Of a stretch of 64,000 bases of DNA, positions 22,013-57,940 are shown in pieces. Positions within the stretch are counted from its first letter, which is position 1. The number at the start of each line of letters is the position of its first letter. Position numbers and translations under genes: made by a program. Source of the DNA: Escherichia coli (lineage in GTDB: Bacteria > Pseudomonadota > Gammaproteobacteria > Enterobacterales > Enterobacteriaceae); NCBI RefSeq assembly GCF_048403405.1, contig NZ_CP183129.1. The stretch is one strand, 5' to 3'. The notes beneath the pieces were generated by a model. The model worked only from the letters and a program-made list of their open reading frames with translations. It made no database searches and was not told the DNA's origin.

Positions 22013-22235
22013 GTAAATTTAGGATTAATCCTGGAACTTTTTTTGTCGCCCAGCCAATGCTTTCAGTCGTGACTAATTTTCCTTGCGGAGGCTTGTCTGA
22101 AGCGGTTTCCGCGATTTTCTTCTGTAAATTGTCGCTGACAAAAAAGATTAAACGTACCTTATACAAGACTTTTTTTTCATATGCCTGACGGAGTTCACAC
22201 TTGTAAGTTTTCAACTACGTTGTAGACTTTACATC

Positions 22236-22368
22236 GCCAGGGGTGCTCGGCATAAGCCGAAGATATCGGTAGAGTTAATATTGAGCAGATCCCCCGGTGA
22301 AGGATTTAACCGTGTTATCTCGTTGGAGATATTCATGGCGTATTTTGGATGATAACGAGGCGCAAAAA
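22236..22368 (+). promoter_or_regulatory. ompA 5' untranslated leader (~133 nt; mRNA stability element and sRNA target site)
   Basis: gccaggggtgctcggcataagccgaagatatcgg...gataacgaggcgcaaaaaATG matches the well-known long ompA leader as I recall it. Confidence 0.75.
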
Positions 22369-23421
22369 ATGAAAAAGACAGCTATCGCGATTGCAGTGGC
22401 ACTGGCTGGTTTCGCTACCGTAGCGCAGGCCGCTCCGAAAGATAACACCTGGTACACTGGTGCTAAACTGGGCTGGTCCCAGTACCATGACACTGGTTTT
22501 ATTCCTAACAATGGTCCGACCCACGAAAACCAACTGGGTGCAGGTGCTTTTGGTGGTTACCAGGTTAACCCGTATGTTGGCTTTGAAATGGGTTACGACT
22601 GGTTAGGTCGTATGCCGTACAAAGGCGACAACATCAACGGCGCATACAAAGCTCAGGGCGTTCAGCTGACCGCTAAACTGGGTTACCCAATCACTGACGA
22701 TCTGGACATCTACACTCGTCTGGGTGGTATGGTATGGCGTGCAGACACCAAGGCTAACGTACCTGGTGGCGCATCTTTTAAAGACCACGATACCGGCGTT
22801 TCTCCGGTCTTCGCTGGCGGTGTTGAGTATGCGATCACTCCTGAAATCGCTACCCGTCTGGAATACCAGTGGACCAACAACATCGGTGACGCACACACCA
22901 TCGGTACTCGTCCGGACAACGGCATGCTGAGCCTGGGTGTTTCCTACCGTTTCGGTCAGGGCGAAGCAGCTCCAGTAGTTGCTCCGGCTCCAGCTCCGGC
23001 ACCGGAAGTACAGACCAAGCACTTCACTCTGAAGTCTGACGTTCTGTTCACCTTCAACAAAGCAACCCTGAAACCGGAAGGTCAGGCTGCTCTGGATCAG
23101 CTGTACAGCCAGCTGAGCAACCTGGATCCGAAAGACGGTTCCGTAGTTGTTCTGGGTTACACCGACCGCATCGGTTCTGACGCTTACAACCAGGGTCTGT
23201 CCGAGCGCCGTGCTCAGTCTGTTGTTGATTACCTGATCTCTAAAGGTATCCCGGCAGACAAAATCTCCGCACGTGGTATGGGCGAATCCAACCCGGTTAC
23301 TGGCAACACCTGTGACAACGTGAAACAGCGTGCTGCACTGATCGACTGCCTGGCTCCGGATCGTCGCGTAGAGATCGAAGTTAAAGGCATCAAAGACGTT
23401 GTAACTCAGCCGCAGGCTTAA
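22369..23421 (+). CDS. ompA: Outer membrane protein A (350 aa allele with variant loop sequences)
   Basis: ORF 22297..23421 (GTG start in track); the ATG at 22369 gives [44 protein letters not shown]...; Ala-Pro hinge [10 protein letters not shown] and C-terminal OmpA-like peptidoglycan-binding domain. Confidence 0.96.
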
Positions 23422-23434
23422 GTTCTCGTCTGGT

Positions 23435-23464
23435 AAAAACCCCGCTGCTGCGGGGTTTTTTTTC
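23435..23464 (+). terminator. ompA Rho-independent terminator
   Basis: aaaaaccccgc-tgctg-cggggttttttttt hairpin plus T-tract directly after the ompA stop. Confidence 0.8.
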
Positions 23465-23495
23465 GTCTATAGAAAATTGAACTGACTTTCGTCAG

Positions 23496-55448: not shown

Positions 55449-56522
55449 ATGATGAAGCGCAATATTCTGGCAGTGATCGTCCCTGCTCTGTTAGTAGCAG
55501 GTACTGCAAACGCTGCAGAAATCTATAACAAAGATGGCAACAAAGTAGATCTGTACGGTAAAGCTGTCGGTCTGCATTATTTTTCTAAAGACAATGGTGT
55601 AAACAGTTACGGCGGAAACGGCGACAAAACTTATGCCCGTCTTGGTTTTAAAGGGGAAACACAAATCAATTCCGATCTGACCGGCTACGGTCAGTGGGAA
55701 TATAACTTCCAGGGTAACAACTCTGAAGGCGCTGATGCCCAGAAAGGTAACAAAACTCGTCTGGCATTCGCAGGTCTGAAATTCGCTGATGCGGGTTCTA
55801 TCGACTACGGTCGTAACTACGGTGTGGTTTACGACGCACTGGGTTACACCGATATGCTGCCTGAGTTTGGCGGTGACACGGCATACAGCGATGACTTCTT
55901 CGTTGGTCGTGTAGGCGGCGTTGCTACCTATCGTAACTCCAACTTCTTCGGTCTGGTTGACGGCCTGAACTTTGCCGTTCAGTACCTGGGCAAAAACGAA
56001 CGTGCTGGTATTCCTGAGCGTTCCAACGGCGACGGCGTCGGTGGCTCTATCAGCTACGAATTCGAAGGCTTTGGTATCGTAGGTGCTTACGGTGCAGCAG
56101 ACCGTACCGACGCCCAGGAAGCCGAATTCCGCGGTCAGGGTAAAAAAGCTGAACAGTGGGCAACTGGTCTGAAGTATGACGCGAACAACATCTACCTGGC
56201 AGCGAACTACGGTGAAACCCGTAACGCTACGCCAATTGAAGGCGGCTTCGCCAACAAAACGCAAGACGTTCTGTTAGTTGCGCAATACCAGTTCGATTTC
56301 GGTCTGCGTCCGTCCATCGCTTACACCAAATCTAAAGCGAAAGACGTAGAAGGTATCGGTGATGTTGATCTGGTGAACTACTTTGAAGTGGGCGCAACCT
56401 ACTACTTCAACAAAAACATGTCCACCTATGTTGACTACATCATCAACCAGATCGATTCTGACAACAAACTGGGCGTAGGTTCTGACGACACCGTTGCTGT
56501 GGGTATCGTTTACCAGTTCTAA
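55449..56522 (+). CDS. ompF: Outer membrane porin OmpF (357 aa allele with variant loop sequences)
   Basis: [47 protein letters not shown]...; C-terminal ...VAVGIVYQF with terminal Phe typical of general porins. Confidence 0.95.
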
Positions 56523-57912: not shown

Positions 57913-57940
57913 AAGCCCGCTTAAAAAGCGGGCTTTTTTA
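57913..57940. terminator. Rho-independent terminator after aspC (between convergent aspC and ycbL)
   Basis: aagcccgc-ttaaaaa-gcgggctt followed by tttta. Confidence 0.75.

Follow-up and report, generated by a model that had tools for sequence, protein, structure and literature searches.

The long-loop ompA allele of an Escherichia coli chromosome and the probable antiquity of the long and short OmpA classes

The ompA locus and its product

The DNA analysed here, hereafter the window, is a stretch of 64,000 nucleotides from Escherichia coli (contig NZ_CP183129.1). It is colinear with K-12 over 57 kb; in reverse orientation it corresponds to K-12 positions 1,041,906-978,246, with 97.5% identity. 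At 22369-23421 on the plus strand lies ompA, an intact reading frame of 350 codons and a stop codon. The identical 1053-nt sequence is annotated in RefSeq, with the ATG start, as ompA (WP_000750418.1) of E. coli strain 7/2; the program-made list of open reading frames extends the frame upstream to a GTG at 22297. That list also places sulA upstream of the gene and matP and ycbZ downstream. The resulting order sulA-ompA-matP-ycbZ, with matP on the opposite strand, is that of K-12.

The encoded protein matches the NCBIfam equivalog NF008071, 'porin OmpA', over residues 1-350 at 674.3 bits (cut-off 277). Two Pfam domains are recognised, PF01389 (OmpA_membrane) at residues 23-199 (E = 1.5e-79) and PF00691 (OmpA) at residues 226-321 (E = 1.6e-23), and the architecture is that of porin OmpA: an N-terminal barrel, a Pro-rich hinge and a C-terminal peptidoglycan-binding domain. 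The segment 22369-23421 is chromosomal E. coli ompA in its normal place, in the form of the common 'long' allele. Short antisense ORFs within the gene were dismissed as mechanical ORFs.

All parts of the gene described below lie on the plus strand. The 5' untranslated leader, as read from the sequence, would occupy 133 nt (22236-22368) and begin with GCCAGGGGTGCTCGG (also given as GCCAGGGG); its start and length we presume to be those of the known K-12 ompA mRNA leader, from which they were carried over. A promoter consensus scan upstream of ompA returned no plus-strand promoter, and Rfam, at gathering thresholds, gave no match at the ompA locus. The signal peptide (22369-22431, codons 1-21) equals that of K-12 in protein and nucleotides. 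We take its cleavage to fall after AQA; PDB chains of the mature OmpA barrel begin at residue 21/22. The eight-stranded beta-barrel domain follows at 22432-22956 (codons 22-196), as placed by PF01389, by our AlphaFold (AF2) model and by identity to PDB chain 9FZD_A. The Pro/Ala-rich hinge (22963-23007) comprises 15 residues identical to K-12, and codon 200 (mature 175) encodes A, the state of the Liao patterns alpha and beta. The periplasmic OmpA-like peptidoglycan-binding domain, delimited by the PF00691 match, spans 23044-23331, and PDB entries 2MQE and 4ERH match residues 204-350. Fourteen nucleotides past the stop codon, at 23435-23470, the consensus scan picked out a putative intrinsic terminator, a hairpin with an 11-bp stem and a T run.

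The segment 22168-22488, which covers the leader and codons 1-40, shows extreme nucleotide conservation. Its portion 22168-22467 carries 0 differences among 8 E. coli strains (the window and 7 others), and over codons 1-40 Salmonella arizonae and several Citrobacter agree with the window in every nucleotide (100%), against 85-91% in the remainder of the gene. This pattern fits an RNA-level constraint on the ompA 5' region.

Elsewhere in the window, Rfam at its gathering threshold gives only two matches, a PyrD leader and a tRNA (37660-37733, minus strand, and 10710-10794, plus strand); by synteny with K-12 the tRNA was assigned to serT, tRNA-Ser(UGA). Two structural differences from K-12 were also seen. 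Within 1-700, appA adjoins cspH/cspG, and the etk-etp-gfc (group 4 capsule) cluster, which lies beyond appA in K-12, is absent; this junction is common to 1675 of 5422 matching genomes. Around 57924-57934 the window is without a 163-nt K-12 segment (984320-984483) of the gloC-aspC intergenic region.

Differences from K-12 and their place on the barrel

How does this OmpA differ from that of K-12? An earlier note on this DNA, made from the sequence, had named three short segments that depart from the K-12 allele and a protein about 4 residues longer, at 350 residues. We fetched K-12 MG1655 ompA and aligned it to the window ORF. The three segments do differ, the K-12 strings given in the note are exact, and the lengths are 350 residues in the window and 346 in K-12, at 97.7% protein identity. 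The two genes are separated by 36 substitutions and a 12-nt indel; 19 codons differ synonymously and 8 nonsynonymously, several of the loop codons with changes at 2-3 of their nucleotides. Numbered as in mature K-12 OmpA, the protein differences are N25P; S66D, V67N and E68I; S108A, Y111P and N114D; a GASF indel after G112; and N203T.

The variable codon of loop 1 (22504-22506) reads CCT for P25, where K-12 has AAC for N25. In loop 2 the variable triplet at 22627-22635 encodes D66-N67-I68 in place of the K-12 S-V-E. The variable stretch of loop 3 (22753-22785) comprises 11 residues, where K-12 has SNVYGKN, and the same string is given in Table 3A of PMC5413513. Within it, the 12-nt indel at 22768-22779 (codons 134-137) accounts for GASF, the 4 residues by which the window exceeds K-12; this long state is common to other genera. 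The remaining substitution, N203T, lies in the C-terminal domain at 23050-23052 (window codon 228, ACC versus AAC), at a position known as a polymorphism that defines the beta, gamma and delta C-terminal patterns (PMC5413513, PMC9560509).

Whether the changed stretches are external had previously been judged from their position in the protein. We mapped them on an AF2 model of the barrel computed from an alignment of 105 sequences (the query and 104 diverse homologues), which replaced a single-sequence run of pLDDT 28.8. The model has a pLDDT of 95.6, eight strands (6-19, 33-44, 49-64, 69-86, 91-109, 115-134, 139-148 and 162-173) and 4-residue turns. It superposes on the crystal structure 9FZD at 1.1 Å (TM 0.94-0.96) and on 1BXW with a TM of 0.83-0.86. 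Eight antiparallel strands form the barrel, joined on the outside by four long loops and on the periplasmic side by three short turns, and since both chain ends are periplasmic, the connections that follow odd-numbered strands are external.

On this model P25 falls within the coil of L1 (20-32) and residues 66-68 within that of L2 (65-68). The variable part of L3 forms a hairpin tip at 108-118, in which 111, 113 and 114 are coil and 108, 115, 116 and 118 belong to the protruding hairpin, at most 4 residues from the tip. No difference falls in the modelled periplasmic turns (45-48, 87-90, 135-138) or in the membrane-embedded halves of the strands. All 7 barrel substitutions lie in loops extended by 4 residues on either side (hypergeometric P = 7e-4). 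By the model, then, every barrel difference from K-12 belongs to the tip of extracellular loop 1, 2 or 3 or lies no more than 4 residues from it; PMC5413513 assigns the same positions to loops 1-3, and the surface location proposed earlier stands. The core barrel, the turns, the hinge and the peptidoglycan-binding domain are conserved relative to K-12 except for N203T. Full conservation of the signal peptide, the hinge and the C-terminal domain had likewise been proposed; it holds for the first two, but not for the C-terminal domain, which carries that substitution.

A sequencing or assembly artefact, or a pseudogene, is refuted by the intact ORF, by 100% identity in independent complete genomes and by the crystallised protein.

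A documented allele and its receptor function

The allele is already known. It is the 'long loop 3' OmpA, which is thoroughly documented, and there is little news in it for this window. Comparison with known ompA allele groups, the check suggested in the earlier note, places it in pattern (III, beta) of Liao et al. 2017/2022 (PMC5413513, PMC9560509), from which it shows no detectable difference at any scored position. N-terminal pattern III is matched by P25, D66-N67-I68, the 11-residue loop 3 at 108-114 and H in loop 4 (GDAHTIG). C-terminal pattern beta is matched by A175, T203 and G251, which correspond to A at codon 200, T at codon 228 and G at codon 276. Pattern III made up 14.1% of 78 isolates, and A175/T203/G251 is the definition of beta (PMC5413513 Table 3); OmpA variants in that study fall into few discrete, co-occurring combinations (Table 4). 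The functional tests of Liao et al. used (III, gamma) and not (III, beta) (PMC5413513, PMC9560509).

Older work describes the same class, as related in PMC5413513. Pattern III was found by Gophna et al. 2004 in CFT073 and in the O78 strain 789. Power et al. 2006, who used a PCR directed at ANVPGGA, scored 43% of 524 isolates as having a long loop 3 ('ompA2') and associated this form with lower sensitivity to phages. This ompA2 equals Liao pattern II and shares loops 1, 2 and 3 with the window. Loop 4 separates the two: the sequenced ompA2 strain, according to that account, carries N, and the window allele H. The latter is thus not pattern II, although a definition by the loop-3 PCR would probably class it as ompA2.

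Over residues 21-195 the window protein agrees fully (100% identity) with chain A of PDB 9FZD, 'OmpA-long' (Commun Biol 2025, PMC12259851); the barrel is the same, and the model lies 1.1 Å away. The entry holds the barrel only, whereas the window protein also carries the periplasmic T203, absent from the crystal construct. Among the long isoforms, OmpA-long is the commonest in a set of about 90,000 genomes; structures of both OmpA-short (9FZC) and OmpA-long (9FZD) have been solved and isoform-specific nanobodies made (PMC12259851). K-12 OmpA, pattern (I, alpha) or 'OmpA-short' (PDB 1BXW, 1QJP, 9FZC), shares with the window its gene, locus, fold, signal peptide, hinge, loop 4 and strands. It differs by 8 substitutions and the 4-residue indel, only in loops 1-3 and at position 203.

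The exact window protein is the RefSeq entry 'MULTISPECIES: porin OmpA', found on at least 1000 contigs, and ompA is 100% identical in nucleotides in strains 7/2 and Nord1. With a 72-nt probe across the loop-3 indel, a long loop 3 was detected in 2063 of 5426 complete E. coli genomes. This share, 38%, is close to the 43% of Power et al. 2006.

The description of the loops as a phage and immune target, given before on general grounds, is borne out by natural OmpA loop variants, which alter both phage host range (PMC12032242) and nanobody recognition (PMC12259851). The four loops form the epitope of nanobodies and the surface that antibodies contact, and Nb01 and Nb39 are isoform-specific (PMC12259851). 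They are also the contact surface for Gp38 adhesins of T-even-type phages, and phage-resistance mutations map to OmpA residues 25, 70, 110 and 154 (PMC12032242). When natural variants were cloned in one MG1655 background, they decided the plating of 'type 2' phages; phages with this Gp38 type infect only OmpA variants with E89 (the SVE form of loop 2), and type 1 phages infect all (PMC12032242). TraN-gamma of the F plasmid shares its OmpA binding site, or face, with phages (PMC10516633).

By analogy with these variants, the window allele, which has DNI instead of SVE and is without E89, would probably resist the 'type 2' Gp38 phages that need the SVE type of loop 2. Its OmpA should likewise be recognised by Nb39 and not by Nb01. 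Allele class thus predicts a surface phenotype, which matters when therapeutic phages are chosen, and also for diagnostics and for vaccines based on OmpA.

Origin of the long and short classes

Are the loop differences recent, or do they reflect a deeper division within the species? Divergence from K-12 is concentrated in one block spanning loops 1-3 (22498-22791, plus strand, codons 44-141), where nucleotide divergence is 9-10% against 0-2% in the flanks. In 100-nt bins, 22168-22467 shows 0 differences and 22468-22767 shows 9-10%; beyond it, and in the flanking genes, values are 0-2%. Identity to K-12 is 89.8% in the block and 99.1% in the C-terminal half. The 300-nt window starting at 22516 ranks 9 of 1264 for divergence from K-12 in a comparison over 63 kb, and ranks 1-8 are all in ompF. 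Synonymous sites take part in this rise: 14 of 91 comparable codons in the block differ synonymously, against 5 of 247 outside it (Fisher P = 1.6e-5), and dS between the window and K-12 is 0.32 in the block (about 100 codons, S about 70 sites, standard error roughly +/-0.07) and 0.026 in the C-terminal half.

These values bear on the suggestion of diversifying selection made in the earlier note, which we extend here to its explicit form, that recent or ongoing positive selection put new amino-acid changes into the OmpA loops of this strain. We regard it as scarcely credible. The changes are confined to surface loops, as was said, several loop codons carry 2-3 nucleotide changes, and OmpA loops are phage and immune targets. 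Yet an ongoing signature is missing. Pairwise loop dN/dS is 0.19-0.50 (0.30 against K-12 for strict loops and 0.19 for loops +/-4, by NG86), so that in no pairwise NG86 comparison did loop dN/dS exceed 1. Nei-Gojobori path averaging is crude for loop codons hit more than once, and a pairwise dN/dS below 1 is compatible with episodic positive selection at few loop codons. Beyond the ratio, linked synonymous divergence is strongly raised in the same block, the exact allele is widespread, and the loops recur outside E. coli, unchanged in E. albertii and Citrobacter and almost so in S. arizonae.

The species comparison drew on one genome per species and on a degenerate DNA pattern that accepts either length of loop 3; the 19 matching loci come from 19 species representatives, a thin outgroup sample. 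DNI together with a long loop 3 was found in E. albertii, Citrobacter sedlakii, C. amalonaticus and Salmonella arizonae/diarizonae, and Intestinirhabdus has DNV with a long loop 3. Loop 3 is identical to that of the window in E. albertii, C. sedlakii and two C. amalonaticus genomes. S. enterica subsp. arizonae shares DNI and has the near-identical loop 3 SNTPGGASYKD; loop 1 of Citrobacter and E. albertii carries N or D, where the window has P. Among the 19 loci the SVE and SNVYGKN loops occur only in K-12-type E. coli. The near-identity of the window loops to those of E. albertii, Citrobacter and S. arizonae points to the K-12 short form as the divergent class, with the window allele in a conserved, ancestral-like class. 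The 'short insertion' described for this allele accordingly has its polarity probably reversed, given a long loop 3 and DNI common to other genera and SVE/SNVYGKN restricted to E. coli, and the GASF indel is more likely a deletion in the K-12 class than an insertion in the window allele.

Nucleotide comparisons are consistent with this polarity. E. albertii, C. amalonaticus/sedlakii and S. arizonae have 93-97% identity to the window in the block and a normal inter-species 85-97% over the rest of the gene; in the C-terminal half alone, the window is about 89-91% identical to Citrobacter and Salmonella. Block dS of the window is 0.21-0.27 against Citrobacter or S. arizonae and 0.32 against K-12. 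Block dN is 0.009 against Citrobacter and 0.009-0.022 over Citrobacter and S. arizonae together. With dS at the normal inter-genus level and dN very low, the long class looks vertically inherited under purifying selection. A recent import of the long block from Citrobacter, suggested by 95% identity in the block versus 91% in the C-terminal half, was rejected, because the block dS of 0.21-0.27 equals the C-terminal dS of 0.25-0.30. Neighbour-joining trees of the two parts disagree. The block tree sets the short alleles apart as a clade (bootstrap 0.99) outside the long Escherichia and Citrobacter alleles and gives Escherichia monophyly a support of 0.00; the tree of the C-terminal half unites all Escherichia alleles, long and short intermixed, in a single clade (bootstrap 1.00).

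The haplotypes of nine alleles show loop-by-loop mosaicism. Strain 1919D62 joins a K-12-like loop-1 segment to long-type loops 2 and 3, and U90 has the loops of the window with different synonymous sites between them. The resemblance of OmpA loops among pathogens is reportedly called 'convergent evolution' in the title of Gophna et al. 2004; the nucleotide-level data point instead to shared ancestry or recombination.

Taken together, the window holds a long ompA allele of pattern (III, beta), very probably one of two old and discrete receptor classes that are reshuffled by intragenic recombination and of which the K-12 form is the divergent one. The coexistence of long and short OmpA in E. coli (38% and 62%) would be maintained by frequency-dependent pressure, exerted by phages and bacteriocins, by conjugation partners and by host defences, and short-tract intragenic recombination would reshuffle the classes loop by loop. 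The selective agent in this scheme is a presumed one, and recombination between species could mimic old ancestry. A stronger version takes the dimorphism for a balanced polymorphism of great age, in a surface that serves as receptor for phages, bacteriocins and conjugation. It would predate the split of E. coli from E. albertii and be about as deep as that of Escherichia from Citrobacter, with derived or foreign loops in K-12 and ancestral enterobacterial ones in the window. We put this forward tentatively, at somewhat less than even chances. What bears on a long-lived polymorphism, on a small sample of sites, is the block dS of 0.32 versus 0.026, the incongruent trees and the 38%/62% split. 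A literature search on balancing selection and recombination at ompA in E. coli found nothing relevant.

Could the dimorphism instead be an import, and no pre-genus polymorphism? One loop block, most plausibly the short block of K-12, would then have been acquired horizontally by E. coli from an unsampled divergent donor. The sharp block edges, with 0 differences up to 22467 followed by 9-10%, agree with such an event, as do the incongruent trees of the block and the C-terminal half and a short block that stands about equally far (87-92% nucleotide identity) from all lineages sampled. Among the 19 matching species representatives, however, a donor of a short-type block was not found, and the window block stands at normal inter-genus dS from Citrobacter, which makes the long block look native. 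We consider the import unlikely, though deserving of weight. Far less probable is relaxed constraint, under which the loops would drift neutrally and the classes would persist without being held by selection. High mobility has been described for parts of loops 1, 2 and 4 (PMC5413513), and patterns I and II were indistinguishable in several surface phenotypes (Liao et al.), but neutral drift sits poorly with long-class loops conserved across genera (dN 0.009-0.022), with a few discrete, co-occurring combinations in place of a continuum (PMC5413513 Table 4) and with two major classes at intermediate frequency, about 38% and 62%.

Only two points in the preferred reading, that of old and discrete classes, are mildly new: the split between long and short would reach genus-level depth, and the loops of K-12 would be the derived ones. 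Genus-level synonymous divergence within a 300-nt block would make ompA an example of a long-lived receptor polymorphism. A caution also follows, in that K-12 is not safe as the ancestral reference for ompA.

Further sequences were met in the course of these comparisons. The ompA of Escherichia sp. MOD1-EC7003 has the loop 3 AHNNVTGVSEKN, which resembles Liao pattern V (AHNNVTGESEKN), and in the loop-block tree it sits with the K-12 short alleles, away from the long ones. A 90%-identical ompA fragment on the 4.7-kb plasmid NZ_CP097216.1 (strain BE311) was set aside as irrelevant, a piece of an lpp-ompA surface-display cloning vector. With its lpp-ompA fusion fragment, TEM-116 and cat, this plasmid looks like a laboratory Lpp-OmpA display vector deposited as a natural plasmid.

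Other parts of the window also depart from K-12. Its most divergent stretch, with up to 15.7% per 300 nt, is the ompF allele at 55449-56522 (plus strand), which encodes 357 residues; K-12 OmpF we take to have 362. The ompF divergence looks like the same surface-loop allele phenomenon as in ompA, in stronger form. Part of the elf/ycb fimbrial operon (K-12 elfC, elfG and ycbU), at about 39666-42100, is 8-11% divergent per 300 nt, where the median is 2%. At about 33216-33566, a short segment matching K-12 rlmL, which encodes a housekeeping rRNA methyltransferase, departs from K-12 by 8-10%, and this suggests a small recombination tract.
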